A stretch of 32,000 nucleotides of DNA from Candidatus Lokiarchaeum ossiferum. Lineage in GTDB: Archaea; Asgardarchaeota; Lokiarchaeia; Sigyniarchaeales; Promethearchaeaceae. Shown here one piece after another: positions 1 to 18,302 of this stretch. The position numbers and the translations under genes are program-made. Each line of letters starts with the position of its first letter. Position 1 is the first letter of the stretch. The stretch is from the NCBI GenBank assembly GCA_025839675.1, contig CP104013.1:870001-902000 (forward strand). Direction: 5' to 3'. The notes under the pieces were generated by a model. The model saw only the letters and a program-made list of their open reading frames with translations. It did no database searches and had not been told where the DNA came from.

Positions 1-1656
1 TACGCTGTTGATCAACTCGCAAAGCCAAATATTCTTCTTTTTTATGACCTTTCAAATGGAAAACAAGCAGGAATTTGTGATTATTTATTGATCAATTTTC
101 CTTTAGTAAAACAACAAATGCCAATCTATGTGATTGCCACAACATCTATCGATGAAGGAGCAGGTGCTTTATCTATTTATTGGAGTATTTTAGGGCTAAA
201 CTCGATCATTCAAGGATCCACAGCAAAAGCTTGTATTCTATTAGATTATGAAGCAATTGGAAATTCAATTTTTCTAAAACGAATTAAGAAAATGGATGAT
301 ATTGATTTTGAGAGTTATAACTATGTTGTAGCCCAATTAATTTACTCCATCACATATTATGATAGAGAACCATATTCAAATGCTGTGCCATTTTGTCAAA
401 TGATTGATAAACTCGTGATTTTCAATGACATGAAATTCATCATTCCCTTCATGACAATGCCTCGTCGTGAATTGATCGAAGATGAAACGTTTTCGGGCTA
501 TTTAAACGAGTTGGTAAATGATTGCAACCTATTTTCAATGAATTATAAACGCCCCATAGATGAAAATGGCGTTGAACAAGATTATCCTAAAATTAGTCTC
601 GCTAATGCATTTATTGCCTTTGGGGAAAAACAAGATACACACTATCTAAACTTAATCCGGAATAATTTACCTCCGATCATGGAATATTTGCCTGGCACTA
701 AAACGTTTTATACATATCCCCGCGGGGACCCTTTCTCCGTTTTTTTAGAGAATAATACAGTTGTTCGTCAATATTTTCAAGACCTTTTGGAGAAATTTGA
801 TATTCTTATCTCCCATCATTCTTATCTACATGTTCTTGAGGATTTAGGAATCACCGTAGATTCATTTTCGGATGCCTTAGACAAATTGGTCTCAATAGTG
901 GATGCATACCAAGAAAGTGAGGATCTGCTCTATGATGATGAAGAATTCGATTATGAAGAAGAAATATCCAAGTATGATCAACCTGTTGATGAAGAGGAAG
1001 AACTAAAACGAAAGTATGGAGATACTACAGAAGGCACTTTAGAAGGAGAAATATCTGAGAAAATAAAGGGAATAAGCGACGCAAATGATCCTGAAAATAA
1101 TGAATTTCAAGGAGAAGAAGGAAGCAAACCAGAAATTTCTTCACCAAAAACTGATGCTTCGGAAGATTCAATAAATAAAACACCAAAATTGGATAAAACT
1201 CAAATCATTAGAACAAAAGATGATGAAATCAATGATATTGATAAATTATCACAAAATATTGACGCCAAATCAATTTCAAACTTAAATGAACAAGCAATAA
1301 AACAAAATCCACGAAGATCCCGTCCAACTCGCACTCTGAAATTACAAAAAGCCGATCCAATTTTAGTCTCAAGGGAAGGAGGTCGAATTGTGAAAGAAGA
1401 AAAACCAGATAAAGCGGAAGGAAGCGCTTTAGGTTGGTTAGAAATGCGTGCCAATAAGGAAAAAGAAAAAGTTCAGCAAGAGAAGGCTGAAATCACCAGA
1501 GAACGAGAACGCATTGAACTTGAAAAACGCGAATTTGAAGAAGCACAAGAACTCATTCGGTTAGAAGAAGAGAAGAAAACCCAAGAAGAAACGGAAAAAA
1601 CATTAAAGAAAAAAGAAGAACTGAAAGAATTAGCTAAAATGTTTGAAAATCTATAG
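1..1656 (+). CDS. Highly divergent tubulin-superfamily protein, 5'-partial, with degenerate GTP-signature loop and ~245-aa acidic/charged C-terminal extension ending in a K/E-rich coiled coil
   Basis: Frame 1 is open from nt 1; the 'M' at 88 in the ORF track is a TTG inside a longer frame (YAVDQLAKPNILLFYDLSNGKQAGICDYLLINFP...). By-eye alignment to the two tubulins in this window is collinear. ILLFYDLSNGKQAG aligns with GFIMTHAVGGGSGGG (T4). ACILLDYEAIGNSIF aligns with TVVIDNHALFQIV. KLVIFNDMKFIIPFMTMP aligns with NLVPYPRSHFLMASFAPM. ISLANAFIAFGEK aligns with FLACSLLFRGEN. YLPGTKTF aligns with FIPTGIKY. ENNTVVRQYFQDLLEKFDILISHHSYLHVL aligns with GNNSEIVSVFERIGANFDRLWSRKAFAHWF. GITVDSFSDALDKLVSIVDAYQ aligns with GMSKDDFAGARDNVQKLSDEYK. 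The tail starts at ~916 (ESEDLLYDDEEFDYEEE). Confidence 0.55.
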   Translation, partial: YAVDQLAKPNILLFYDLSNGKQAGICDYLLINFPLVKQQMPIYVIATTSIDEGAGALSIYWSILGLNSIIQGSTAKACILLDYEAIGNSIFLKRIKKMDDIDFESYNYVVAQLIYSITYYDREPYSNAVPFCQMIDKLVIFNDMKFIIPFMTMPRRELIEDETFSGYLNELVNDCNLFSMNYKRPIDENGVEQDYPKISLANAFIAFGEKQDTHYLNLIRNNLPPIMEYLPGTKTFYTYPRGDPFSVFLENNTVVRQYFQDLLEKFDILISHHSYLHVLEDLGITVDSFSDALDKLVSIVDAYQESEDLLYDDEEFDYEEEISKYDQPVDEEEELKRKYGDTTEGTLEGEISEKIKGISDANDPENNEFQGEEGSKPEISSPKTDASEDSINKTPKLDKTQIIRTKDDEINDIDKLSQNIDAKSISNLNEQAIKQNPRRSRPTRTLKLQKADPILVSREGGRIVKEEKPDKAEGSALGWLEMRANKEKEKVQQEKAEITRERERIELEKREFEEAQELIRLEEEKKTQEETEKTLKKKEELKELAKMFENL

Positions 1657-2320: not shown

Positions 2321-5300
2321 TTAAGAATTCGCTTCGTCTTGAATCAAAGAAGGTAAATTTTCTTTCGCTTTTATCGTTTTATAGAGAAGTAAAACAAAAA
2401 CAATCCCTATGACTAAGAAAAGCAAAGAAATATATTCAAAATCGCGTGAAAAGGATCGAATAATGATAAAAAAGACATAGGAAATGCCGATTAGTGCGAT
2501 TAAACCGTATTGGAATTTAATATGGTAATCAATCTCTAAATTAGCGATAACCCAGCCTGCAAACAGAGCAAGATTGAAAATTATGCCAAATTTGACTTCC
2601 GATAAGAATCCAGTCATCATCAAACTAATGATCACAACCATTAGAGAATAATAAAATCGATAGAGAAGATATTTTTCATTAGTTTTAGGACGATTAGAAT
2701 ATAAAAGTGAAACTATACAAGTACAGGCAATAACTGCAGTATAAATAAAGAGAAAATTGAATTCAAAATTATCGTCCATTATCCCCACTAACATTCCGAG
2801 ACCAGAAAGACACGTAATTCCAAGTTGTTGCCACATTTTAGGGTGATATGAGAATAAAAATGTTAACAATATTTGCAATAGAATTATTTGTATCCAGAAA
2901 TATTCACCAGAGATGAAAGTTTGTTGGATGAAACTACCGTAATAATATATTACTGCGAAGGAAATGACAGAAAATCCAAAATTAAAAATTAAATTCACGA
3001 GTAACAATTTTTGATCCTGGTTCGACGTTTTTGATTTTTTTTCTTTATGATTTTGCCGATCAAGAACCGAAAGACTAAGCTCAATAATTAACAAAAGAAC
3101 AAAAACCAAAGGAATAAAGAGTCCAAACTGGGTGAAATCACTCTCAAATATAAAAATAACACAAATAGAATTCATGAGATTTAAAATCAACATGTAAGAA
3201 GAAGTTGAAATTGGATTCTCGGAGATTATATTTTTCATCCAGAAAACAAGAGTAGCGCCAAGAATAATGACAATTTTTGTCCAGGTTGCTAATAGATTAT
3301 TGTAAGAATAATTAATCACTAATATTACAATGATGTTAATCGAATGGGCAAGAAAAGTGTTAATTTTTACATTGATTTGAGTATAAAAAATAATAAGCTG
3401 GAAAGCTACCCAAAAAATAGAGATAAATATTATCCAATAACTTGAATACCGAAAGAATTGAATACTCTTTAAAGATAATAAATAAATGGAAGCGAAATAT
3501 GTTAAGATCCCATACTGCAATACAGATTTTTTGGAAAGATTGGTGTCCTGAGTTAAGAAAAACTTGCCGAATAGACCGGTGATTAATAATCCACCCATAA
3601 ATATCGAAAATAGCACGAGAGTTTCTTGCATTATTGTCAAAATGAAAAGGACCCCTATGGAGGTTAAGAAAATATGAAGAAGGTTTATTTTAGTTTTTGC
3701 ATACTCTACGAATTGGTCTTTTTTGGAATCTTGTAATATTTTCATGCCTACGATAAACGGATAAATAAAAAAGCATAAAATTAGAATAAATTCAACAATT
3801 TGTGTGGATCCCTCAAGATCTCCCATATATAGTTGAAGGATAAGAAAGTTAGTTAAGGATGTGATGAGAAGTTGAAGTGAAATAGCACTTTTTTCTCCAG
3901 AACCATCGATCGTTCTTGAATAATAGAGGGAAAATCCCAAGATTATCATAGTAATAATGAAGAATGCTGGTTTATCGGACGTATTTCTTTCGAAAAGACA
4001 TATAATGAAACCAATCCTCGCCATCAATAAGTAAAATAAACGGACAAAAACTCGCACTTTGGAATATTCAAATTCCAAAAATTGAGTCATACTTAATGCC
4101 ACGTAAAAGCTGAGAATGAACCCCAAAATAACAGCGAAATTATCCCAGATTACTCTAGAGAAAAGTGAAAAATTCAATAAGGTTATAAGGTTGATGAAAA
4201 TTTGAACGGCGTGATTAATAAAAACAAGGAGCAGATAGGGAGTTTTTAGATCATGGCTTAAATCTTGCTTAATAATCCCAATTTGCTCTTTAATCTGAAT
4301 ATAAAACTGAGCTTGAAGAATGATGAATAAAACAACTATTTCTATACTCGAAGAATCTCGGTGATGAATATTGATTACAAGGAAATAATAAGCCGCCATT
4401 GGTAAAATTTGATTAATAATGAGAAGGACAAACTTAACTACACTGTTTTTGTAAAATTCATAGTGATCTCCGTATCCCTTTAATAGCAATCTCCCAAATA
4501 TAATATTTACACAGATAATCAAACTTAGATTCAGGGATATAATTTCAGAAAATTCACCAATAAACGAGAGAATTGAGATGCTAATCATGACTGCAACTAA
4601 AGGAGTGAGGGATATTTTTTTAAGAGCTAACCCTGTTGCAACAATGATTAATGCAGCATAGAAGATTGTGTTAAGATTTTGATAATATATTCCTAAAAAC
4701 TGATTATTAATAAAAGATGGAATTAAAACCAAGATAAGAATGCTCAAAAAGACTTCTCCAATGAAAAAATCATTGCGATACTTTATAAGAAGTATGATAA
4801 ATACGAAAATGAGTGATATAATAGATAAGCACCATATTATTACGTTTAATACAGAGTCCCCAGATAAAACTGCTGTTGGGAGAATATATGCAAGCGACAG
4901 CCCAATTACCCCTAATCCGATAAAACTCCACGGAAAGATAAAAAGTTGTGATTTTTGAGATTTTATGTATTTATTTATCAGATAAAATCCAGCGATTAAG
5001 AATCCGGCTGATAAAATATAAATATAGATAAAAATATTTAAAAAGGTCAAAAAACCTTCCTCAAGCCACCTTATTAACATTAGAAAACTAATGTAAATTG
5101 TTACAGACAGTAAAATATAAAAGAAAAATAGAAGAAGATAGGGTTTTTTTTGATCGGAAGGAGTATTATACGTATTCCTTTGCGATTTTTTAGTTTGCTG
5201 GACCGATTTATTGTCATTTATACCTGGAGATCTTACTCGAGTATATTTCGATAATTCCTTGTGTTGAAGTAAATCTTTGTTTAAAAGTGGTACACTGGCA

Positions 5301-5626
5301 AGTTTTTTCTGAATAAAATTTTGCTCTTTTTGAATTTTTTGTTGAGAAACTGCATCAAACTTAGATACTTTTGTTGATTCTGTTAGTTTTTTTTTAGAAT
5401 AAGATAAATCAGAAGGAAGATGAGGGAGAGCACTAACCAAATGATTTTTTTTAACCTCGTTTGTAGGTAGAGTTTTTTTCATCCCCAATCGCATCTGAAT
5501 GGAATCTAAACTTGTAGCAATAGTATCAACTTTCATTTCTAATGAGGAAATTCGTTGAATCATGTTTTTGAGTTCAGAATTGGAATTGGGATCTGAAGAT
5601 TTTTCTTTTTGTATTTTATCTTCCAT
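2321..5626 (-). CDS. Giant polytopic membrane protein (1101 aa) with ~170-aa basic, coiled-coil cytoplasmic N-terminus
   Basis: Single 3.3-kb ORF in AT-rich DNA. The N-terminus MEDKIQKEK...MIQRISSLEMKVDTIATSLDSIQMRLG has heptad-like spacing and is followed by a K/S/Q-rich segment. After that comes near-continuous hydrophobic helices, a few dozen by eye. The architecture resembles DUF2339-type proteins; that is from memory and not verified. Confidence 0.75.
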   Translation of the reverse strand: MEDKIQKEKSSDPNSNSELKNMIQRISSLEMKVDTIATSLDSIQMRLGMKKTLPTNEVKKNHLVSALPHLPSDLSYSKKKLTESTKVSKFDAVSQQKIQKEQNFIQKKLASVPLLNKDLLQHKELSKYTRVRSPGINDNKSVQQTKKSQRNTYNTPSDQKKPYLLLFFFYILLSVTIYISFLMLIRWLEEGFLTFLNIFIYIYILSAGFLIAGFYLINKYIKSQKSQLFIFPWSFIGLGVIGLSLAYILPTAVLSGDSVLNVIIWCLSIISLIFVFIILLIKYRNDFFIGEVFLSILILVLIPSFINNQFLGIYYQNLNTIFYAALIIVATGLALKKISLTPLVAVMISISILSFIGEFSEIISLNLSLIICVNIIFGRLLLKGYGDHYEFYKNSVVKFVLLIINQILPMAAYYFLVINIHHRDSSSIEIVVLFIILQAQFYIQIKEQIGIIKQDLSHDLKTPYLLLVFINHAVQIFINLITLLNFSLFSRVIWDNFAVILGFILSFYVALSMTQFLEFEYSKVRVFVRLFYLLMARIGFIICLFERNTSDKPAFFIITMIILGFSLYYSRTIDGSGEKSAISLQLLITSLTNFLILQLYMGDLEGSTQIVEFILILCFFIYPFIVGMKILQDSKKDQFVEYAKTKINLLHIFLTSIGVLFILTIMQETLVLFSIFMGGLLITGLFGKFFLTQDTNLSKKSVLQYGILTYFASIYLLSLKSIQFFRYSSYWIIFISIFWVAFQLIIFYTQINVKINTFLAHSINIIVILVINYSYNNLLATWTKIVIILGATLVFWMKNIISENPISTSSYMLILNLMNSICVIFIFESDFTQFGLFIPLVFVLLLIIELSLSVLDRQNHKEKKSKTSNQDQKLLLVNLIFNFGFSVISFAVIYYYGSFIQQTFISGEYFWIQIILLQILLTFLFSYHPKMWQQLGITCLSGLGMLVGIMDDNFEFNFLFIYTAVIACTCIVSLLYSNRPKTNEKYLLYRFYYSLMVVIISLMMTGFLSEVKFGIIFNLALFAGWVIANLEIDYHIKFQYGLIALIGISYVFFIIIRSFSRDFEYISLLFLVIGIVFVLLLYKTIKAKENLPSLIQDEANS

Positions 5627-6296: not shown

Positions 6297-6986
6297 TTGA
6301 ATGCATTACAGTTTGAAAAAATGAAAAAAAGCTATTTTTATGATGAATTCATGCAGAAAGCTTTAGAATATGACAATCTCAAAATGGAAGATTATATGCA
6401 TTTCATGCCCAAGGTTCTCCCTTTGATTTTAGCTCATACAGAAAGAGATCCTGTAGAACTTTTCCAAACCCTAATGGAAGAGTTACGAGAATTATGGGAT
6501 GCTTCCGAAGAAATTCCTTTTCATGGTCCTTGGCATCATGGAATAATTCCCGCAGTATTGCTGCAAACTTTGCAAAATAATGGAGATAATATTTTAAAAG
6601 AAGATATAGTAGAAGCTTATGGGCGAGGTTTGAAAATAACAGCTGGAAGTTGTGGGTTTTGTGGTATATGTGGAGCGGGATCTGGGGTTGGAATAGCCTT
6701 GAGTATCGCATTGAAAGCAAATCCATTTCAGAATCATCCCCGAACATCAGTATTCGGTGCAAGTGCTCAAACAATCAAGAAAATTGGGCAGTTAGGTGGC
6801 CCTCGCTGTTGTCGATTAAGTTCCTATGTTGCTCTTGAAAAAGGAACGGAATTCCTCTCAAAAGCGGGATTTACGATAGAACCGCGCAAACTTACAGGAT
6901 ATTGCACAATCTTTGAGAGAAATGCAGAATGTCATACTATTCGTTGTCCATATTATTCTAAAAATAAATCTAGGATAGAAGAATGA
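6297..6986 (+). CDS. Cys-rich putative metal/Fe-S-binding protein (DUF5714-like)
   Basis: Motifs HGPWHHGIIPAVLL, GSCGFCGICGAGSGVG, GGPRCCRLSSY and C-x-ECHTIRCPYY. The ORF-track start is TTG at 6297; the first ATG is at 6321. The family name is recalled from a motif pattern and was not searched. Confidence 0.6.
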   Translation: MNALQFEKMKKSYFYDEFMQKALEYDNLKMEDYMHFMPKVLPLILAHTERDPVELFQTLMEELRELWDASEEIPFHGPWHHGIIPAVLLQTLQNNGDNILKEDIVEAYGRGLKITAGSCGFCGICGAGSGVGIALSIALKANPFQNHPRTSVFGASAQTIKKIGQLGGPRCCRLSSYVALEKGTEFLSKAGFTIEPRKLTGYCTIFERNAECHTIRCPYYSKNKSRIEE

Positions 6987-7119: not shown

Positions 7120-8394
7120 TTATTCTTCGTCTCGTTTATATTCATCGCTGAGTTTCTGAACGTTGTCTCGAGCCCCTGCGAAATCGTCTTTGGACATACC
7201 TTCAATTTCATACCAATTCAAGAATGCACCCTTGTCGAACATAAGGTTAAATTGGGCTAAGATCCGATTGAAAATTTCAGCCACACCAGTGTGATTAATT
7301 AAAGCAGACCCACTGCGTTCCAAACCTTCAGGAGCGGTGCCAGTCATACCATACTTAATACCGGTAGGAATGAATGAACTAAATTTAATGCGTCCTTTGA
7401 TGTCTAAGAGAGCATTGGTAATATCTTGAGCAGTGTTTTCACCCCGGAAGAGGAGAGAACAGGCCAAGAATGTGCCTTTGGTGACATCGACTGCAGCCAT
7501 CATATAATTTTCTTCGAAGAGAGCATTAGCGAGGTTACTGGTGGTCAATTTCGCATATTGGCGATCTTCCGCAGTTGCCATCGGAGCAAAGGAAGCCATG
7601 AGAAAATGACTGCGTGGATAAGGAACCAAGTTGACCAAGAATTCCTTCATATCGGTGTTGAGTGAACCTTTGAAGCGAAGGGAGGCAGTAATATCAGATA
7701 AAGCCTGAGAGATCACATGGTTCAAATCATCGTAAATAGGATCATCAATACCCATATTCTTCGTGACAATTTGGAACAAAGCATGATTGTCAATAACGAC
7801 GGTTTCATCAGTATATTGAATCATTTTATCCAAAGACAAGATGGCGTTGTATGGTTCTACGACCGCATCGCTTAATAAGGGGCTTGGTAGGATGGAATAA
7901 CTCCACAAAATTTTCTTGGGATATTCTTCTTTAATCTTTTCCATGATTAAACATCCCAAACCTCCACCAGATCCACCACCAACAGCATGGGTCATGATAA
8001 ATCCTTGAAGAGATTCACATTTTGCAACTTCTTTCTTCAGTTGTTCCATGATATTGTCAATCATATCGCGACCTTCACCCAAATAACCTTTTGCAAAACT
8101 GTTTGCACCCCCATAGAGTCCATGGATCAGGTTTTTAGGATCGAAGAAACTTGGTAATTGTTCATTGCCAACTTGTCGAACGACCTTTGGTTCTAAATCA
8201 ATCAAAAGAGCTCGTGGAACATATTTTCCACCACTTGCTTTCATAAAGAAACAATCAGGATCACCTTTAATATCCCCACCAATAGGGGCACCATTATGAT
8301 CTAAATTGTGCTCAGCACAGATTTGTTTCCAATACATTGCACCAACTTGAATACCAGCTTGTCCAACGTGTAACATAATAACTTCTCGGCCCAT
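7120..8394 (-). CDS. Tubulin, alpha-like (catalytic Glu in T7 loop); Asgard AtubA/B-type family candidate
   Basis: 424 aa. MGREVIMLHVGQAGIQVG (compare alpha-tubulin MRECISIHVGQAGVQIG). T4 signature GGGSGGG at 7960-7980. VVEPYNAILS. T7/H8 LNTDMKEFLVNLVPYPRSHF has Glu251 (codon 7642-7644) where alpha-tubulin has E254. FIPTGIKYG; NHTGVAEIFNRILAQFNLMFDKGAFLNWY. Short acidic end ...EYKRDEE. Confidence 0.95.
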   Translation of the reverse strand: MGREVIMLHVGQAGIQVGAMYWKQICAEHNLDHNGAPIGGDIKGDPDCFFMKASGGKYVPRALLIDLEPKVVRQVGNEQLPSFFDPKNLIHGLYGGANSFAKGYLGEGRDMIDNIMEQLKKEVAKCESLQGFIMTHAVGGGSGGGLGCLIMEKIKEEYPKKILWSYSILPSPLLSDAVVEPYNAILSLDKMIQYTDETVVIDNHALFQIVTKNMGIDDPIYDDLNHVISQALSDITASLRFKGSLNTDMKEFLVNLVPYPRSHFLMASFAPMATAEDRQYAKLTTSNLANALFEENYMMAAVDVTKGTFLACSLLFRGENTAQDITNALLDIKGRIKFSSFIPTGIKYGMTGTAPEGLERSGSALINHTGVAEIFNRILAQFNLMFDKGAFLNWYEIEGMSKDDFAGARDNVQKLSDEYKRDEE

Positions 8395-8395
8395 T

Positions 8396-9667
8396 TTATG
8401 CGTCCTCCGTTAATTTTCTGTAATCATCGATCACTTTTTGGACCAATGCACGAGCATCATCGAGATCTTTTTCTTCGAAACCAGAATCAGTAAACCAGTG
8501 AGCGAATGCTTTTCGAGACCAAAGTCGATCAAAATTAGCGCCAATTCGCTCAAAGACTGAGACAATTTCAGAGTTGTTTCCTAACATAATGACACCTAAA
8601 GCACTATCTTTTGGAGAAGTTTCACTCTTTGAAATCTTGAATCCTGTTGGAATCCAGTTTACAAAGGAATTCTGTTCTTTGACAGTAGCCATAGCTTCAT
8701 TTACATCACTAGTTTTGACAGCACCACGGAATAGTACGGAAGCTGCAAGATATCTCCCAGTGGTAGGTTTGCATGCCGCGCAAATATATTCATCACCAAA
8801 TACTTGTGCCGATAATTCTTTGGCGGTCATTTTTTCATAACTTTCTTTACCTGCCAACACGAGTGGAGCAGTAGAAGCCATTAAGAAATGTAAGTTAGAG
8901 AATGGGACTAAGTTGGTGACTAATTTGCCAAGATCAAGGTTCAAAGTTCCGCTAAATCGTAAGGATGCGGTCACATTGGTCAATACTTGAGCAATGATTA
9001 AGTTTAAGTCTTCTAAACTTGGATTTTCCACTTCTAATTTCTTTTCTGCAATGCTAAATAAGGCTTCATTATCTAAAACAATGGAACAGCTAGCATATTT
9101 GATTAAATTAGATAATGTCATGATGGCATTATATGGTTCAACCACAGTTTCAGAAATTTTAGGACTTGGGAAGATACTGAAGGTAAAGATTGGGACCTTT
9201 GGATATCTTTCACGAATGGTTTTCAAAATTTTTGAACCAAATCCGGATCCGGTTCCACCACCACAGCTGTGGGTTAATATGAAGCCCCCGATCGATTCGG
9301 TTTCAGATACACGTTGTTCAACAACTTGCATAACTTTTTCTAATGTCTCAGCTCCGTGTTCATTGAAGCCAATTGCAAAGTTATTTCCGGCACCATCAGC
9401 ACCTGAGACAATTGATTTAGGATCAAAGAGAGTCCCAAATTTTTCACGAATATTTTCCACTACTGCTGGTTCTAAATCCACAACGACGGCTCGTGGAATA
9501 TATTTATCCCCAATAGTATTAAAGAAAATATCGGTATCGCCAACTACATCGATGGCTTTACCATTTACAGGATCAATGCCGTGTTCTGCGCAAATTTTTT
9601 GCCAAAACGCACCAGCAATTTGGTTTCCGGCTTGACCGACCTGTATACAAACGATTTCTCCTGCCAT
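8396..9667 (-). CDS. Tubulin, beta-like (Lys at T7 catalytic position); Asgard AtubA/B-type family candidate
   Basis: MAGEIVCIQVGQAGNQIAG (compare beta-tubulin MREIVHIQAGQCGNQIG). T4 signature GGGTGSG at 9242-9262. VVEPYNAIMT. T7/H8 LNLDLGKLVTNLVPFSNLHF has Lys (codon 8924-8926) where beta-tubulin has K254. WIPTGFK; GNNSEIVSVFERIGANFDRLWSRKAFAHWF. The ORF track starts at GTG 9682 (MGMINM...). ATG 9667 aligns exactly with the partner's MGREVI start, so I prefer it. Confidence 0.95.
   Translation of the reverse strand: MAGEIVCIQVGQAGNQIAGAFWQKICAEHGIDPVNGKAIDVVGDTDIFFNTIGDKYIPRAVVVDLEPAVVENIREKFGTLFDPKSIVSGADGAGNNFAIGFNEHGAETLEKVMQVVEQRVSETESIGGFILTHSCGGGTGSGFGSKILKTIRERYPKVPIFTFSIFPSPKISETVVEPYNAIMTLSNLIKYASCSIVLDNEALFSIAEKKLEVENPSLEDLNLIIAQVLTNVTASLRFSGTLNLDLGKLVTNLVPFSNLHFLMASTAPLVLAGKESYEKMTAKELSAQVFGDEYICAACKPTTGRYLAASVLFRGAVKTSDVNEAMATVKEQNSFVNWIPTGFKISKSETSPKDSALGVIMLGNNSEIVSVFERIGANFDRLWSRKAFAHWFTDSGFEEKDLDDARALVQKVIDDYRKLTEDA
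8404..8408 (-). promoter_or_regulatory. Shine-Dalgarno GGAGG for the alpha-like tubulin, embedded in the end of the beta-like gene
   Basis: The minus strand reads ACGGAGGACGCATAAAATG. GGAGG lies 9 nt upstream of the ATG (8394-8392). The upstream TAA (8398-8396) is 1 nt from that ATG. Confidence 0.7.
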
Positions 9668-9979
9668 GTTTATCATACCCACTTGAAATTTTGCATTTCG
9701 AATATTATCGTTAAATTATTGGTCTTTATGATGTGAGACTCAATAACTATCGCGAAATATTTAATTCAAGAGTTATGTCAATTTTATGCGATCGAGCTAA
9801 TAATAATATATTTTAAAAAATAGGGTCGAAAAATGATTGAAAAAAGCATGGAAAAATTTCTAATGTTGAAATATAAAAGAAACCACTAAATATCTATGAA
9901 AAATTAGTAGGATTGGAAAAATTTATTTTCTTGAAAAAAGGACGAAATCGGTAAAAAATGTTTTAAATTGGAAGATGGA

Positions 9980-10378
9980 TTACCGACGATCCAAATACCG
10001 TGAAATAAAATAATAAATAACTAAAAAGCCAACTTCAGTAATAGAGAAAATAATACTTACAAGGAGCTGTGGAAAGATTCCCATTGCTTCTGTGATCCAA
10101 TAGAAACTGATGATAATAAAAAGCATAGTAAAGATACGAATGATATCTTTTCGTTTAATAAAGGAATATACTATCAGCCCTAATAAAGCAACCATTAGTA
10201 ATGCAGGAATGATATATAAATTACTAAAACGTTGCATACAAAAAATGGAAATTGTAAAGGAGAATATAAAATTAATTCCAGACATCACTAAATAGGTCAG
10301 CCCGATTTTATCAGTTAAAATTTCCCAATCCTCACTAGTATATAACAAATCTTTTTTTTCTTTTTTAACTTCAGTCAT
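9980..10378 (-). CDS. Small 4-TM membrane protein (paralog A)
   Basis: 132 aa with four hydrophobic helices. Shares T-x-LV...IN...IF...Y..(I/L)P......LGL.....F..RKD with the adjacent ORF. Its start overlaps the upstream stop (ATGACTGA, 10371-10378). Confidence 0.65.
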   Translation of the reverse strand: MTEVKKEKKDLLYTSEDWEILTDKIGLTYLVMSGINFIFSFTISIFCMQRFSNLYIIPALLMVALLGLIVYSFIKRKDIIRIFTMLFIIISFYWITEAMGIFPQLLVSIIFSITEVGFLVIYYFISRYLDRR

Positions 10379-10781
10379 TAAAAATTACCGTCCCAGGATG
10401 AGAGTCATAATAATTCATGCAAAGAAGACTAATTTCAAGGAGTGTGATCACTAAAACAGGCCACACCCCCCAAATGTCTAATAATGCTAAAATGGTAAGA
10501 AACGTGCAAGCCACGATGATGTACGAAAAGATATTAATCATCAGAGAAAAATAATCTTTACGAACGAAAATCCAAAATAGAAGACCTAAAATACTAATTA
10601 TTACAATAGGGAGGATCCATAAGTAAACTTTACTTTCTGAAACCAAAAAAATGACCCCTACAATAATAACAAGCAAATTAATAAAGGCATAAACAAGATG
10701 TGTGAATGAATTAGTTCTTACCATTTCTCCGGGAGTTTCTTCATTTCGATCAAAAATGCGTTCACTTCCATCACGAATCAT
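10371..10781 (-). CDS. Small 4-TM membrane protein (paralog B)
   Basis: 136 aa. Tandem paralog of 9980-10378, with an 8-nt overlap that indicates co-transcription. Confidence 0.65.
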   Translation of the reverse strand: MIRDGSERIFDRNEETPGEMVRTNSFTHLVYAFINLLVIIVGVIFLVSESKVYLWILPIVIISILGLLFWIFVRKDYFSLMINIFSYIIVACTFLTILALLDIWGVWPVLVITLLEISLLCMNYYDSHPGTVIFND

Positions 10782-11015
10782 AATAGATTAAGCTAATTTT
10801 TCCCTTTATTTGAACATTCAGAAATTTAGAGATAGAGATCGATCTACTTTATATGAACTCCTAAAATAGATAATAATCTTAATTTAAGGCTTTATAGCAG
10901 GAGCATTATCGAAATATTGGTTATTCATAAAATTAAGGAAAAAACTAAAAGAAGAACGAGAAATAAGAGATGAAAAGGAAAAAAAAAGGAATAGTTTTGA
11001 ATTGTGACTTGTTTC

Positions 11016-12311
11016 TTACAATAATTTCATCATTTTCTTCAAATTACCAGACATGATTAATTGCATCACACCACGTGAGCCACCAATAACTTCTTGGATA
11101 GAAGAAACACCCCAAGTCCGCATCACACGAGTATTATCTGTCACAGAGACGCCACCCATCAATTGTTGAGTTTCATAAGCCGTTTCTGCAGCTAATTTTG
11201 CACAAAGATATTTAATTTGACCGGACCATTGAGCACTGGCTTTAGACATTTCTGGAGTGACTTTTTCACCACGTTGCATTACTTGCAATACATTCTCATC
11301 ATACATCTTTGCAATATTAAAGGCTGCCATTGTAGCCGAAGAAACACGAATTAGAAGGTCAGAGAATGGATAGGATACAGCTTGATACTTCATGATTGGT
11401 TTTCCAAATTGGTTTCGAAGATTGCTATAAATTATACCATTAAGGATCGAACTCCAACAAATACCTAAACTGGAACCTACGATAGAGAGTCGTTCTGGAA
11501 CTAAGCCATCAAATAAATTATGGTAACCTTGACCGGGTTTACCTGTGATCATTGCTTCAGGAACAACTATACCATTATAATGAGTTTTCCCAATATGTAC
11601 TCTAGGCACGGCATTAATTTTCAACCGTTCAGTAGTTATCCCCATATCTCGGCTTAACATTGCTTGAACCATAGTACCGCGAGGATTCGCCTCATCTACG
11701 CAACCATACCCTAAGAAATAATCGGATTTTGGACCATTAGTGGTAAATATTTTCATTCCTTCAAATTTATATCCACCATCCACGGGGCTAACTTTAGCTT
11801 CCATATTGACTGTATCAGATCCATGGTTAGCTTCGGTCATTGCAATACACCCAACTTTGGTCCCTGAAAGTAATTCATCTTGGACTTTATCTAATTCAGG
11901 AGTCCCTCCATGTTGGAAAGTAGGATTTCCACACAAAATTCCAGAAGCAAGTCGTGCCAGATCAAATTCAGCATCCATCATAGCAAGGTTCATTCCCAAT
12001 AACATTTCATATTTACAACCCGCTAATTTAAACTCCTTCCAAGGATTTAGGCGTTGAATGTATCCCTTTTTCCCAAAATCAGGAAACATTCCATAAACAT
12101 CGGTTTCATAGTTGATCTTTGGATCATAATCAATACAAAATTCTTGTAATTCTTTCACAAACCCACGTTCTTCCTCTGTTAAGAGAAGATTGACTTGATC
12201 ATTCCATAGTTTATACACATTTTCAAGGCGCATCTGTTCCTCGATATCTTGTGGAATTATTTTTACTTTATCGACCATATTATTCACTTTTTTAGAAAAA
12301 TCCATACCCAT
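11016..12311 (-). CDS. Acyl-CoA dehydrogenase family protein
   Basis: 431 aa. CIAMTEANHGSDTVNMEA (compare the ACAD (L/M)TEPxxGSD motif). GGYKFEGMKIFTTNGP (ACAD middle beta-domain). Length is typical of the family. Substrate is unknown. Confidence 0.8.
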   Translation of the reverse strand: MGMDFSKKVNNMVDKVKIIPQDIEEQMRLENVYKLWNDQVNLLLTEEERGFVKELQEFCIDYDPKINYETDVYGMFPDFGKKGYIQRLNPWKEFKLAGCKYEMLLGMNLAMMDAEFDLARLASGILCGNPTFQHGGTPELDKVQDELLSGTKVGCIAMTEANHGSDTVNMEAKVSPVDGGYKFEGMKIFTTNGPKSDYFLGYGCVDEANPRGTMVQAMLSRDMGITTERLKINAVPRVHIGKTHYNGIVVPEAMITGKPGQGYHNLFDGLVPERLSIVGSSLGICWSSILNGIIYSNLRNQFGKPIMKYQAVSYPFSDLLIRVSSATMAAFNIAKMYDENVLQVMQRGEKVTPEMSKASAQWSGQIKYLCAKLAAETAYETQQLMGGVSVTDNTRVMRTWGVSSIQEVIGGSRGVMQLIMSGNLKKMMKLL

Positions 12312-12651: not shown

Positions 12652-14238
12652 ATGGATGAAACGATCGCTTTATTTGTAAGTCTTGGATTAATTGTGATTT
12701 TTATTTCATATACTGTATTGTACTATCTAATAGTTGTTAAAAAGCGTGAAGATATACAAGAAGGCTCAATAACAAGATCCGCAGTTCAAACATTAGAGGA
12801 TTTATTTAAAGAACAAGAAATGGAATCGATCCGTTCGAAATTAGCGAATTTACACCAAATCGCGTCAACTAAAGGAATTCAAGAAGCGGGTCCACTTTCT
12901 ATAAAGAAAGACGAAAAATTGCTTATTGATGAAGGAGAACAATTATGGAAAGAATGGAATGCCGAATTAGGGGAAGCCGAACCAATTTCTGATGAACAGC
13001 GTCAAAAAGATATTGAATTATTAAAAACAACCGTTTCTGCTTTAGAACAATTGGATAAAGAGCATTATAACGAATTAGAGAAAGAAGAAGTAGATATGGG
13101 GAAAGGAATGTTTTATGATTCGATCTCACGAAAGTTGGGGAGAATTTTAAAAAATAAAAATTGGAAAGAATTACCATTTATTCAAGCGGAAAAATTGGAA
13201 AATGAAGCATTAGGAACAGTTAAACACCTCGAACATGATGATTTTAAGGAAACTCTCAAATTGATGAAAGTTGTTGGGATATTTAAAGACATTGTTGAAA
13301 TTGATCCTCATACTACACTCTTAGTTTTTACTAAAACGCCTTTAAAATTTTCCCTTGTTGAAAAAGTAGTGCTAAGTTTTATTGCCCATTCTGAAAATTC
13401 CTCGATCACCGAATTACAAAAGTTAACTGGATGGAAATCTTCATATTTATATCAAGTTATCGAAGATCTGGAACAGAGAAAAATAATTTTAAAACAAGAA
13501 AACCAACTCCAAGCAATTGGATTCATGACAAAGGAGGAACGCACAAATCGGCATCAAAAACTCCATGAAATTCAACTGAAAAAGGAAGAAAAAGAAAATA
13601 AAGTTAATCAGCTCCAACGTGAACAACAAGCGAAAATGAAAGCGGAACAAAAAGAGAAGGAACTTCAACAGAAATTAGAACTGGAACGGAAGCAGAAGGA
13701 ATTAGAAGATGCACGATTGAAAGCAGAAATCGAAGCTCAAAGCGAATCTATGAAAATAGATGTTGATGAACCTGTTATGGAATCTTCAACTCCAGAATTG
13801 CTTGAAGTTCAAAAACGCGAAGAAATTATTCAAAATATTCAACAAATTTTTACAAACACAATGCCCTTAACGGGAGGAATTATCATCCTCCAAGCTTTAC
13901 TATACTATATTAATCAAGGACCATATCCAAACATGCAAAAGATTGAATTGCTTCATTACATCGATATTATGAAAGAACGTCAAATCATTTATGAAGAAAT
14001 TTCCTATTCGGGAGTAGATATCTACATTTTCCAAGATCTTATGATTGATGATGAAATGAAAGTAGCGCTCCGTCATTTTGTCACCCATGGAGAAATGGAT
14101 ATGGAGGATCTTGAAACTGCTACGGACTGGGATACTGAACATGCAAAACGAGTATTAAAACGTTTTTATGATCAAAAAATATTACAACTTAATCAGCGGA
14201 ATCACTTTTATATACCGGGATTGTTCAATACTAATTAG
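12652..14238 (+). CDS. N-terminally membrane-anchored coiled-coil protein with winged-helix-like segments
   Basis: N-terminal TM helix IALFVSLGLIVIFISYTVLYYLIVV. Long E/K/Q-rich coiled coil (KEEKENKVNQLQREQQAKMKAEQKEKELQQKLELERKQKELEDARLKAE). wHTH-like stretches SITELQKLTGWKSSYLYQVIEDLEQRKII and MEDLETATDWDTEHAKRVLKRFYDQKIL. Confidence 0.6.
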   Translation: MDETIALFVSLGLIVIFISYTVLYYLIVVKKREDIQEGSITRSAVQTLEDLFKEQEMESIRSKLANLHQIASTKGIQEAGPLSIKKDEKLLIDEGEQLWKEWNAELGEAEPISDEQRQKDIELLKTTVSALEQLDKEHYNELEKEEVDMGKGMFYDSISRKLGRILKNKNWKELPFIQAEKLENEALGTVKHLEHDDFKETLKLMKVVGIFKDIVEIDPHTTLLVFTKTPLKFSLVEKVVLSFIAHSENSSITELQKLTGWKSSYLYQVIEDLEQRKIILKQENQLQAIGFMTKEERTNRHQKLHEIQLKKEEKENKVNQLQREQQAKMKAEQKEKELQQKLELERKQKELEDARLKAEIEAQSESMKIDVDEPVMESSTPELLEVQKREEIIQNIQQIFTNTMPLTGGIIILQALLYYINQGPYPNMQKIELLHYIDIMKERQIIYEEISYSGVDIYIFQDLMIDDEMKVALRHFVTHGEMDMEDLETATDWDTEHAKRVLKRFYDQKILQLNQRNHFYIPGLFNTN

Positions 14239-15726: not shown

Positions 15727-16629
15727 ATGCCAAATACTAAAACAAAAACTAAAACAAAATCTAAAAGTAAAGTGACAAAAAAGAGTTCAAAAAAAAATGT
15801 AAAAAGAAAATCCTCAAAAAAATCAAATAAGTCCTCTTTAAAAAAAACCAAAAAAACAAATTCTAAAAACAATCAAAAATCTACTAGTACACAAAGCGAT
15901 TCTTCTAATCTCAAAAAAGAGGTTAAGTCACAAATGCAATTAAAATCGGAAGTAAAACCAAATAATATCCATAAGAAAGACAATGTGGAACCAAAATCTA
16001 CAGTTGTTGCACGAAATCTTCTTCGACTTTATCAATACCTTCAAATGGACAAACCTATTGAAGAAACTAAATTGATAGAAGAAATGGAATTGAATACCCC
16101 AAATGAAAAATTACGACAAAAATTGATGCAAATTGAATTAGAAAGTCAATCGATTTATGAGGAAAATCATGCATTGAGGCAAAGCGCCCTTCAAACCCAA
16201 ATTGAAGCTGAAGAAAAGGTTGAAGCTATTGAAATGGAGAATGAAGAATTAAAGGGAAAAATCAAACAATTTAATACACGAATTAAAGTTGAACTTGAAA
16301 AAGTGGCTCAGAAATATGAAGCGATTATAAAAAAATTAAAACTTGAATTAAATTCCGCCCAAAGTAAAAATGAAGAAATATCGGTGGTTAGTGACGGAAT
16401 TGAAGGGTTACAAGCCAAATTCACATTACTATTTCAACAAAATGAAGATCTTCAAACTGAAAATACCGCATTAAAATCCACCATTGAAGATTTAAATGAA
16501 AAAATTGTTGAAAGCAACGAAAAACGAGAAAAACAACAAAAGAAAGAACGGGAACTGGAGAAAAAAGTGGAATTGCAGAAAATGGTAATAGATGGGTATA
16601 AAAGAAAAGAACAAAAAGAAACCCAATAG
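15727..16629 (+). CDS. Protein with Lys/Ser/Thr-rich basic N-terminal tail and long coiled coil
   Basis: MPNTKTKTKTKSKSKVTKKSSKKNVKRKSSKKSNKSSLKKTKKTNSKNNQK, followed by ~200 aa of heptad-like E/K/Q/L sequence. No recognisable enzymatic motif. Confidence 0.6.
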   Translation: MPNTKTKTKTKSKSKVTKKSSKKNVKRKSSKKSNKSSLKKTKKTNSKNNQKSTSTQSDSSNLKKEVKSQMQLKSEVKPNNIHKKDNVEPKSTVVARNLLRLYQYLQMDKPIEETKLIEEMELNTPNEKLRQKLMQIELESQSIYEENHALRQSALQTQIEAEEKVEAIEMENEELKGKIKQFNTRIKVELEKVAQKYEAIIKKLKLELNSAQSKNEEISVVSDGIEGLQAKFTLLFQQNEDLQTENTALKSTIEDLNEKIVESNEKREKQQKKERELEKKVELQKMVIDGYKRKEQKETQ

Positions 16630-16711: not shown

Positions 16712-17284
16712 TTAAAGTTCTAATTTCCAATCTTCAATCTTTTCCAACAGTAAACTGGAGACATTTTCATGGATTATATCCATACCCGGTTTTATTTTAC
16801 GCTCAAAAGTTTTTATATCAAACAATATTTTATGACCACCTGTGATAATGAATAACTCTTCCTTTGAAGCTTTAATGACCGACAATAATTCATGAGCAGT
16901 GCTAATGGACCGGACTTTTCTCTCTAAATCATTCAAAACATCCAACGCAGTTTTATTTTCTTGCGGATCTTGTTTTGAAAAGTTTTCTGAATTCATATCA
17001 GTAAATTTTAACGACAGTTTAGATAGATGATTCTTAATTTTTTGCGCTTCATTGAGAATTTCTGATCGAGAACGGTTCGTTTCATGCAATTGATATTTCA
17101 AATCTCGTAATTCATGAACTTCTTCTTCAATTTTACCAACTTTATCAGATAAGATCGAAAGTTCGTGTTTCATTTCACCTATATTCTGTATAAGATTTAA
17201 GCCAAAATTTTGCAAGATTTGACCAAAACCATTAATTTTTTCTTCAAGAGATTTCTTTGATAATTGATCTTGTGGGTTCGCCAT
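16712..17284 (-). CDS. Hypothetical coiled-coil protein
   Basis: 190-aa ORF transcribed divergently from the GTPase gene. The N-terminal two-thirds are heptad-like. No recognisable motifs. Confidence 0.5.
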   Translation of the reverse strand: MANPQDQLSKKSLEEKINGFGQILQNFGLNLIQNIGEMKHELSILSDKVGKIEEEVHELRDLKYQLHETNRSRSEILNEAQKIKNHLSKLSLKFTDMNSENFSKQDPQENKTALDVLNDLERKVRSISTAHELLSVIKASKEELFIITGGHKILFDIKTFERKIKPGMDIIHENVSSLLLEKIEDWKLEL

Positions 17285-17423: not shown

Positions 17424-18302
17424 ATGATACAACATGTCAATATTTTAACTATCGATGGAAAATCGCTACTTTTTCGTGAATATGGTGCAACTAAAGTAGA
17501 TCAAGACTTACTTGCAGGATTTTTAAGTGCTTTCAGTGGATTTATGATGGAAATTTCCCAATCTGAAATTAAATCAACAATCACTGGCAAGTCAAAATTC
17601 ATATATAGTAAAGCGAAATCAATAATCGTGGTGATTTGTGCAGATATTGCAGATAAGGATGATGAAATCATCCCAATTTTAGAAACGATTTTAAAAAAAT
17701 TTATCGATCGGTATTGGGATGTGTTTAGAAATGATAATTGGAATGGGGAACGTTCTCTTTTCAATGATTTTTTTGACGAAATTGATAAACTTATTTTAGG
17801 TCCAATTAAAGTATCCATTTTAGGATATGCCGGTGTTGGAAAAACAACGATTACCCGCTTGATAATCGGAAAAGAAGCTAATTTAGAATATATCCCTACA
17901 ATTACGGCAGATATCGCAAATTATGATAAATTGGGAAGTCGAACAATAGTTCTCTGGGATTTTGCAGGTCAAATTCAATTTACTGATTTATGGAATTCCC
18001 TATTAAAAGGAACTCGAATTATTCTTCTAATCACCGATTCAACTTATAAAAATGTGCAAGCTTCAAAAAAAATTATTGAAAAATTTGTAGAAAAACGTTA
18101 TTCTGATGCCGAAATCATTGGAATTGCCAATAAGCAAGATCTTCCTAACCGATTAACAAGCACATTCGTTGAAAAAATCTTAAACATTCCAACATATGGT
18201 ATGATTTCTACGAATGCCGACTATCGATTAATGATCCACGAGATTTTAAAAAAATCTATTGATCGAATTAATCAACAAGACAGTTTTCGCGAGATAAAAT
18301 AG
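17424..18302 (+). CDS. Longin-like N-terminal domain fused to Ras-superfamily small GTPase
   Basis: GTPase motifs are G1 GYAGVGKTT, G2 region IPTITAD, G3 WDFAGQ, G4 NKQD and G5-like ISTNA. The N-terminal ~125 aa (MIQHVNILTIDGKSLLFREYG...LLAGFLSAFSGFMMEI...KFIYSKAKSIIVVICADI...IIPILETILKKFIDRYW) show a beta-beta-alpha-beta-beta-beta-alpha pattern by eye. Confidence 0.85.
   Translation: MIQHVNILTIDGKSLLFREYGATKVDQDLLAGFLSAFSGFMMEISQSEIKSTITGKSKFIYSKAKSIIVVICADIADKDDEIIPILETILKKFIDRYWDVFRNDNWNGERSLFNDFFDEIDKLILGPIKVSILGYAGVGKTTITRLIIGKEANLEYIPTITADIANYDKLGSRTIVLWDFAGQIQFTDLWNSLLKGTRIILLITDSTYKNVQASKKIIEKFVEKRYSDAEIIGIANKQDLPNRLTSTFVEKILNIPTYGMISTNADYRLMIHEILKKSIDRINQQDSFREIK

Follow-up and report, generated by a model that had tools for sequence, protein, structure and literature searches.

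A divergent, tailed tubulin-family protein with a degenerate nucleotide site in the tubulin gene island of Candidatus Lokiarchaeum ossiferum

Here we describe a gene at the left edge of a 32,000-nucleotide (nt) stretch of the Candidatus Lokiarchaeum ossiferum chromosome (contig CP104013.1, positions 870,001 to 902,000; hereafter the window). Its product, which we call the pseudotubulin, is a real and highly divergent member of the tubulin family that, as judged from sequence profiles and structure models, keeps the whole tubulin fold. The motifs that contact the nucleotide in tubulins are degenerate, a tail of 244 amino acids (aa) follows the tubulin-like core, and the gene recurs beside canonical tubulin genes in contigs of related Lokiarchaeia.

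As a preliminary description of this DNA had reported, the open reading frame (ORF) runs off the window edge: read from nt 1, frame 1 meets its first stop codon at 1654-1656, after 551 residues. The coordinates stated there proved correct. The whole gene, the recovery of which had been proposed there, lies on the L. ossiferum chromosome at locus L005 10001-11977, and its first 107 codons, left of the window, could be supplied from the complete 658-aa L. ossiferum protein P0001 (gene at CP163304.1 890164-892140), which is annotated as 'hypothetical protein'. The recovered N-terminus is compatible with a tubulin N-domain. In it, a tubulin-type S1-T1-H1 (LLFIFIGQRGLQIGSIFF) leads into an H1-S2 region that is shortened, and the S3 motif reads PEEN where tubulin has RPDN; in alignments, the H1-S2 loop together with the H2 region is ~25-40 residues shorter than in tubulins. 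The window and P0001 are one residue apart, with Ala (LQKADPIL) in the window and Thr (LQKTDPIL) in P0001 at nt 1303-1305, so the window and CP163304.1 represent slightly different assemblies or strains of L. ossiferum. The parts of the gene within the window are as follows.

1-1656 (+): 3' part of the gene for the 658-aa degenerate tubulin-family protein, codons 108-658 plus stop (ORF open to the window edge; full-length P0001)
1-915 (+): tubulin-like core from the end of H3 to H12, P0001 residues 108-412 (phmmer against the PDB, hhalign, AlphaFold2 (AF2) with Foldseek)
52-72 (+): degenerate T4 loop SNGKQAG replacing GGGTGSG (alignments)
367-414 (+): degenerate T7 loop and H8, EPYSNAVPFCQMIDKL, with D251 replaced by V and E/K254 by C (alignments)
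913-1029 (+): acidic, E-hook-like segment directly after H12 (charge count; ratio of nonsynonymous to synonymous substitution rates (dN/dS) 0.05)
1030-1419 (+): variable low-complexity linker, probably disordered (dN/dS 0.33; predicted local distance difference test score (pLDDT) <40 over most of it)
1420-1653 (+): C-terminal module with a G[AVI]LxW[LVI] motif, an E/K/R-rich helix and a terminal LxxLAxxF (LAKMFENL) (AF2 helix; proportions of nonsynonymous and synonymous differences, pN and pS)

Tubulin homology and predicted fold

Several comparisons lead from this protein to tubulins, despite a sequence identity of ~16%. In a phmmer search of the PDB, the fragment encoded in the window matched BtubB at E 2.2e-7 (window residues 12-305 to BtubB residues 135-424), and beta-tubulins, Odin tubulin and AtubA were likewise matched. 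A profile of the pseudotubulin family matches beta-tubulins in the PDB at E 2e-7, chiefly from H10 to H12 and the acidic tail, with H11-H12 the region that matches best; the PDB matches listed are tubulins, BtubA/B, Odin tubulin and Atub proteins, and no FtsZ, CetZ or TubZ chain is among them. Using hhalign, the family profile was compared with a tubulin profile made from AtubA, AtubB, AtubC and gamma-tubulins; the two align with a probability of 99.4% (E 1.3e-21), and the 389 aligned columns are collinear, stretching from residue 9 in S1 to residue 421, where H12 ends, opposite columns 3-432 of the tubulin profile. When 1.84e9 representatives were searched exhaustively with HMMER, tubulins were the sole proteins outside the family with a whole-library E <1e-3, and the family itself proved rare, with five clusters at E <1e-30. 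The scans of domain libraries were negative: no Pfam family was found for five members at E up to 10, the thresholds of PF00091 and PF03953 were not passed, and the NCBIfam scan returned no relevant match for the pseudotubulin, which explains the 'hypothetical' annotation.

Structure prediction gives the same picture with a caveat. The AF2 model of the core from 23 sequences reached a pLDDT of 77.5 and a predicted template modelling score (pTM) of 0.83, and Foldseek matched it to tubulins at E 1e-22 with template modelling (TM) scores of 0.77-0.81, a fold result that is partly circular since the 23-sequence alignment contains tubulins. Superposition gave TM-scores of 0.77-0.79 with alpha/beta-tubulin and 0.81 with gamma-tubulin 3cb2_A (root-mean-square deviation (rmsd) 3.3), while the rmsd to BtubA was 2.9. 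A second model was computed from five family sequences alone, and its use was confined to the tail helix and to a Foldseek comparison free of circularity; its pLDDT was 47, yet its top Foldseek matches were again tubulins, at E 2e-8. The tubulin-fold paralogue of the preliminary description is thus borne out by phmmer, by the profile-profile comparison and by AF2 with Foldseek; of the findings that it named as speaking against this assignment (another fold, an incompatible N-terminus, absence of co-occurrence with tubulins), each was looked at and none was found.

The gene product is a descendant of a eukaryote-type tubulin with H11/H12, and not of FtsZ or CetZ. Within the tubulins its position is less sharply defined. 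Ranked by score against the family profile, beta-tubulin fragments come first, then AtubC and AtubA, then AtubB, then gamma-tubulin, and beta-tubulin and BtubB head the ranking in the PDB; the branch is long, and no shared indels that would place the family within tubulins were seen in the alignment. Proteins of the AtubC type score 1-31 bits against the family profile, against >400 bits for full-length family members, and are ~14-19% identical to the family, which therefore does not belong to the AtubC clade. Gamma-tubulin resembles the pseudotubulin as a tubulin paralogue outside the lattice that caps or nucleates through a longitudinal contact, and it gives the best single TM-score (0.81). 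It differs in binding GTP (guanosine triphosphate), retaining the signature motifs, lacking a long tail and acting within GCP complexes; the gamma-tubulins P0023 and P0024 score 8-11 bits against the family profile, below beta-tubulin, AtubC and AtubA, so there is no specific affinity. The eukaryotic Misato/DML1 shares membership of the tubulin superfamily, degenerate motifs and a role other than polymerization, and differs in taxon and architecture; its domains PF10644 and PF14881 gave no match at E up to 10. A scan of GTDB species genomes with the family alignment produced 290 pattern matches of which 0 were confirmed, not even in L. ossiferum; the region of origin may be masked there, and no conclusion is drawn from the scan.

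A more distant relative is P0009, a protein of 382 aa with 22% identity to the pseudotubulin, no tail and the T4 sequence AEGLVGA, which shares the shortened N-domain, PE(D/E)N and DxxW. It is encoded (L007 3119-4267, +) near a canonical tubulin of a different lineage (L007 3-827, -) that has the catalytic Glu in T7. Canonical tubulins and pseudotubulins may therefore have been paired before the L. ossiferum lineage arose, a suggestion drawn from a single 4.4-kb contig. A coiled-coil/winged helix-turn-helix (wHTH) protein and a 138-aa protein are encoded between P0009 and its canonical tubulin.

Nucleotide motifs, tail and selection

Alignments with AtubA/B/C and with alpha, beta and gamma tubulins show substitutions in every motif that makes up the nucleotide site. 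T1 has changed from GQ(A/C)GxQ to G-x-R-G-x-x, in which the two glycines alone are retained. In T3, GAGNNW has become SGDLW; the NN is replaced by DL, and neither Asn is left. T4 reads SNGKQAG, invariant in the close family, instead of GGGTGSG, and T5 is 2-4 residues shorter, with LSIYW for VEPYN. In T6, DNEA has become DYEA (N206 to Y), while N228 is retained in the close family and is D in a second subfamily. T7 reads NAVPFC in place of NADL(R)K/E, with V for D251 and C at position 254, where the second subfamily has V. The preliminary description had already remarked on the loss of the T4 signature GGG(T/S)G(S/G)G and of the Asp/Glu equivalents in T7; both observations stand, and the other nucleotide contacts have gone as well. 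The substituted residues are themselves invariant within the close family. In the subfamily with 42-44% identity (P0006, P0013), T4 is SSGLTAG or SSGFDAG, and since the intruding residue is K, L or F depending on the subfamily, the change gives the impression of a pocket that has been filled and not of one refitted for a new, specific ligand. From these substitutions, the pseudotubulin is predicted to be unable to bind GTP or to trigger its hydrolysis.

The tail has a three-part layout common to every full-length family member that was segmented; in P0006 the motif search missed the GVIGWIE start of the C-terminal module, and the parts are visible by eye. The first part is an acidic run with the motif LLY(D/E)(D/E)EE, whose net charge over the first 35 residues is -12 in L. 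ossiferum and -11 to -20 across the family. Like the E-hook of beta-tubulin, it stands directly after H12, and HMMER aligns the two. The second part, a linker of 53-190 aa from the end of H12 to the C-terminal module, has almost no sequence conservation. The third, the C-terminal module, hardly varies in length (70-81 aa in the family); G[AVI]LxW[LVI][EK] opens it and LxxLAxxF closes it. In the five-sequence AF2 model, residues 583-657 form one straight helix with a pLDDT of ~85. No Pfam match was found for the tail.

The length and the acidic, E-hook-like start that had been given for the tail (245 aa, against 244 aa here) are supported, whereas the K/E-rich 'coiled coil' proposed for its end is doubtful: the heptads are weak, with hydrophobics at 0.30-0.55 of the a/d positions in the best register, and there are many pairs of opposite charge spaced i/i+3 or i/i+4. 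These features suit a single charged alpha-helix that carries a hydrophobic motif at each end better than they suit a classical coiled coil, and an antiparallel dimer that pairs the end motifs is possible. The opposite-charge pairs recall ER/K single alpha-helices and stathmin-like helices, a likeness that, as with that of the acidic run to the beta-tubulin E-hook, may be compositional only. In FtsZ, a tubulin-fold core is followed by a disordered linker and a conserved C-terminal peptide. By analogy, the short conserved end peptide that follows the variable linker in the pseudotubulin could serve to recruit partners; FtsZ differs in being an active GTPase without H11/H12, with a tail that has neither an acidic E-hook nor a charged helix of 70-81 aa.

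Selection was assessed against the orthologue in L002, with 83% identity overall. The core has a dN/dS of 0.02 at a synonymous divergence (dS) of ~1.7, the acidic segment 0.05 and the linker 0.33, and in the C-terminal module pN is 0.055 vs a pS of 0.76. The core is under strong purifying selection, the end of the tail is also constrained and the linker is relaxed.

The tubulin island of Lokiarchaeia

The pseudotubulin gene lies 5.5 kb from AtubB, one of two tubulins within the window (5.5-8 kb away), and downstream of another canonical tubulin outside it. The island genes and the clusters that adjoin them are listed here, with positions in the window unless a locus is named.

7120-8394 (-): AtubB, alpha-like tubulin with the catalytic E in T7 (100% identical in the printed alignment to PDB 9f6t_B)
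8396-9682 (-): AtubA, beta-like tubulin with K in T7 (PDB 9f6t_A, E 2.5e-283)
L005 6465-7874 (+): canonical tubulin of 469 aa with both Pfam tubulin domains and T4 GGGAGSG, 2.1 kb upstream and outside the window
L005 9085-9852 (+), L001 8396-9151, L014 11217-11981, L011 9203-9934, L008 1204-1935, L010 12164-12898: zinc-ribbon gene
L005 1-6299, L001 1106-6666, L010 1623-9568, L011 364-6684, L014 629-9359: archaellum-like cluster

In the 469-aa tubulin there is a large insertion in H1-S2, and a Lys (RADFNK) occupies the alpha-E254 / beta-K254 position of T7, so a homopolymer of this tubulin would be without a catalytic T7 residue. It belongs to a Lokiarchaeial clade of its own (P0014-P0022), ~25-30% identical to AtubA/B, and is encoded 9.6 kb from AtubB in L. 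ossiferum and 4-8 kb from it in the three other loci that have both genes. Exactly three Asgard clades, AtubA, AtubB and AtubC, plus AtubB2, were described by Lowe et al. 2026 (PMC13394414), who place AtubC within 10 kb of AtubAB in Lokiarchaeia. Their searches used PF00091, COG5023 and PSI-BLAST at 1e-10, and long branches were removed, a strategy that would find the 469-aa tubulin and hardly retain the pseudotubulin. The upstream gene is thus very probably the published AtubC. Like the pseudotubulin, AtubC is restricted to Lokiarchaeia and encoded in the same island on the same strand; it differs in keeping GGGAGSG and all GTP contacts. The pseudotubulin had been counted as the third tubulin paralogue in the preliminary description, a number that needs revision because AtubC sits just upstream of the window and AtubB2 elsewhere in the genome. 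It is a further tubulin-family member, undescribed in the texts accessible to us, and at least the fifth in L. ossiferum, FtsZ/CetZ aside.

The order of genes on L005 is the 469-aa tubulin, a MaoC gene on the other strand, a 252-aa zinc-ribbon protein and the pseudotubulin; AtubC is two genes upstream of the pseudotubulin in general and three in L. ossiferum, on the same strand. The order canonical tubulin, zinc-ribbon protein, pseudotubulin, and AtubB plus AtubA on the opposite strand is found in L005, L001, L002, L011 and L014, and in part in L003, L004, L008 and L010, where contigs end; the divergent subfamily is included. With hmmsearch, unannotated neighbors at the island loci were recognized as family members. 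This recurrent order in Lokiarchaeial contigs agrees with the co-occurrence with tubulins that had been expected for the pseudotubulin.

The zinc-ribbon gene encodes a protein of ~250 aa with an N-terminal winged-helix / AAA_assoc_C part and a C-terminal double zinc ribbon (DZR). Wherever upstream sequence exists, it is the gene immediately before that of the pseudotubulin, in the 42-44% identity subfamily too, with the exception of L011, where a DDE transposase (10106-11416, -) is inserted between the two genes in the divergent subfamily. The zinc-ribbon protein is a possible functional partner of the pseudotubulin. After the pseudotubulin, a large N6-adenine methylase / Eco57I-like gene is present in L011 (13363-16206, +) and L006 (2528-4150, +). 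Between pseudotubulin and AtubB, L. ossiferum alone has a 1101-aa polytopic membrane protein without a Pfam match (window 2321-5626, -), a small membrane protein (1677-1982, -) and a DUF5714 protein (6297-6986, +), and L001, L002 and L014 have one short gene (~120-330 aa).

An archaellum / type-IV-pilus-like cluster (archaellins, KaiC-like ATPase, T2SSE, T2SSF) adjoins AtubC upstream in divergent orientation in the loci examined, with a Gtr1/RagA-like small GTPase beside it in L001 and L010; L013 keeps it only in part, at the contig end. L013 also carries bacterial-type POTRA/ShlB and ExbB/ExbD genes; its assembly might be chimeric, or the synteny might truly be broken there. As to AtubA, its ORF starts at a GTG five codons before the Met of the PDB protein, and ORF residues 6-428 equal chain residues 1-423. 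Downstream of AtubA, the window has genes at 12652-14238 (+), 15727-16629 (+) and 17424-18302 (+), which encode a pair of K/E-rich coiled-coil proteins (for one of them there is a weak MarR-like winged-helix match) and an Arf/Ras-like small GTPase extended at its N-terminus by ~125 aa. The coiled-coil/wHTH proteins of the window (12652-14238) and of the P0009 contig (L007 1539-2681) and the zinc-ribbon protein were compared as possible relatives, an idea that was rejected as there is no significant similarity. A 190-aa protein at window 16712-17284 (-), ~7 kb from AtubA, matches Pfam DASH_Dad3 (E 3.4e-5; 24.2 bits vs a cut-off of 23.1), a match that may be a chance coiled coil. DASH_Dad3 is a subunit of a fungal kinetochore microtubule-binding complex.

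Possible functions and significance

A role as non-catalytic partner or tether of Atub filaments is the reading that we prefer, with our confidence poised at about an even chance. The core would dock on a GTP-binding Atub subunit through the longitudinal contact by which tubulins bind each other, and, adding no GTPase chemistry, the pseudotubulin would serve as a static heterodimer partner, an end cap or a decoration of the lattice. The likeliest partner would be AtubC, because its gene is co-oriented and co-distributed with that of the pseudotubulin and because it has the non-catalytic Lys in T7, as does AtubA; alternatively, AtubA could be the partner, in the way AtubB2 pairs with AtubA. By gene linkage, AtubC is at least as strong a candidate as AtubA/B, and among the loci compared the pseudotubulin gene was found only where AtubC was found. 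In the alignment, AtubA and AtubC have Lys at the alpha-E254 / beta-K254 position of T7 and AtubB has Glu; the Lys of AtubA agrees with the statement on AtubA K248 in PMC13394414. A T7 of the Lys type sits on a partner whose nucleotide stays unhydrolyzed. The tail, in which acidic stretch, flexible linker, 11-nm charged helix and conserved end peptide succeed each other in an FtsZ-like build, would hold the filament to a partner or at a distance from it; candidates are the zinc-ribbon protein, another copy of the pseudotubulin and a membrane.

The nearest precedent within the organism is AtubB2. This paralogue reportedly has no nucleotide site and is the partner of AtubA. Like the pseudotubulin, AtubB2 of L. 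ossiferum (PDB 9f6v, 9hxc) has an impaired nucleotide site, with GELG in T1 and GDGTGAG in T4, and it forms heterodimers with AtubA as the non-catalytic partner (PDB 9f6v, 9hxc; also stated in review text). It differs in that it can pass for a normal tubulin (its match to AtubB has E 6.7e-119), lacks a tail and has its gene far outside the island, whereas the pseudotubulin is ~16% identical to tubulins, escapes Pfam, is without the H1-S2 loop and has a tail of 244 aa.

Conservation between the two subfamilies was used to ask which faces of the core are kept. Identity is highest in S3 and its preceding loop (91%), followed by S8 and H10 (67%), the H11-H12 loop (64%), T6, T7, H9 and S10 (62%), H7 (60%) and T3 (59%). 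Several of the best-kept segments, including S3 with its preceding loop, T3, T6, T7 and H10, line the two longitudinal faces; the lateral H1-S2 loop is truncated and the M-loop is moderately conserved, which fits end-on contacts better than full lattice membership. Several points weigh against a partner or tether of Atub filaments. Since the kept loops border the old pocket and the structural core as well, their conservation is no proof of an interface and the argument is weak; the T5 loop on the plus-end face is shortened and not conserved, and the M-loop region is of low confidence in the AF2 model. Pairing with AtubC would leave neither subunit with a catalytic T7 residue, and the polymer would not hydrolyze GTP. 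One locus, L013, has the AtubC-type P0019 and no zinc-ribbon or pseudotubulin gene within 10 kb, and common descent may explain part of the gene proximity in genomes that are close relatives.

A more specific form of the proposal is possible but rather doubtful: the pseudotubulin would be a prokaryotic forerunner of accessory tubulins, a nucleotide-free subunit that either forms a dedicated heterodimer with AtubC or caps or nucleates the AtubA/B mini-microtubule, with the E-hook, the linker and the 11-nm helix anchoring or spacing the polymer relative to another cell structure.

It is also conceivable, though in our view unlikely, that the pseudotubulin is a repurposed scaffold that no longer touches tubulin and has retained the fold merely for its stability as a platform; it would work with the zinc-ribbon protein, perhaps linking it to nucleic acid or cargo in the manner of TubR-type adaptors, or with the archaellum-like machinery. 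The constant DZR / AAA_assoc_C / wHTH neighbor upstream, the loss of all catalytic chemistry and the deletion of the lateral H1-S2 loop would be natural for such a protein. Its gene, however, always lies between bona fide tubulin genes, the loops of both longitudinal faces are among the best-conserved segments, and the acidic tail and H11/H12 remain beta-tubulin-like; moreover, the Pfam and NCBIfam scans found no DNA-binding or other domain in it.

There is a slim chance that the pocket has been remodelled rather than lost and that the protein is a nucleotide-binding, self-polymerizing, cytomotive tubulin. No part of the protein is better conserved than the pocket region, and the glycine skeleton of T1 (GxxG) and T4 (G127, G131) is retained together with Y167, D189 and N214; yet both T3 Asn, three T4 glycines, E183, N206, D251 and E/K254 are substituted, the bulky T4 residue (K, L or F) differs between subfamilies, and there is no match to the Pfam Tubulin family even at E 10.

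That the protein has already been described, under the name AtubC or as some other protein named by Wollweber et al. 2025 (Cell), appears very improbable. The reported distance of AtubC from AtubAB (within 10 kb; PMC13394414) would accommodate a gene 5.5 kb from AtubB, but the 469-aa tubulin, which is neither AtubA nor AtubB, must belong to one of the three published clades, and the searches in PMC13394414 would hardly retain the pseudotubulin. The literature accessible to us, which did not cover Wollweber et al. 2025 (Cell), makes no mention of a nucleotide-dead, tailed tubulin paralogue. Finally, a functionless, decaying relic of a tubulin duplication, to which the loss of every signature motif might point, can be ruled out for practical purposes, since the core dN/dS is ~0.02 with synonymous sites near saturation, the substituted motifs are themselves invariant and the reading frame is intact in ~10 contigs.

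Asgard mini-microtubules were discovered only in 2025-26, and the open questions stated in the literature are their cellular role and the existence of regulators or motors. The pseudotubulin is a conserved candidate regulator or partner of archaeal microtubules that is encoded between the tubulin genes themselves, and it unites a pseudo-GTPase tubulin fold, an E-hook-like acidic tail and a tether of linker and terminal peptide, three features otherwise typical of eukaryotic tubulin biology or of FtsZ biology. AtubA/B reagents and an L. ossiferum culture already exist, which makes it directly testable. Should it be an accessory tubulin, it would be the first tubulin-derived microtubule regulator known outside eukaryotes, and the division of labor among tubulin paralogues would have begun in Asgard archaea. 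Even as a mere scaffold, it would represent a new and very divergent branch of the tubulin family tree.

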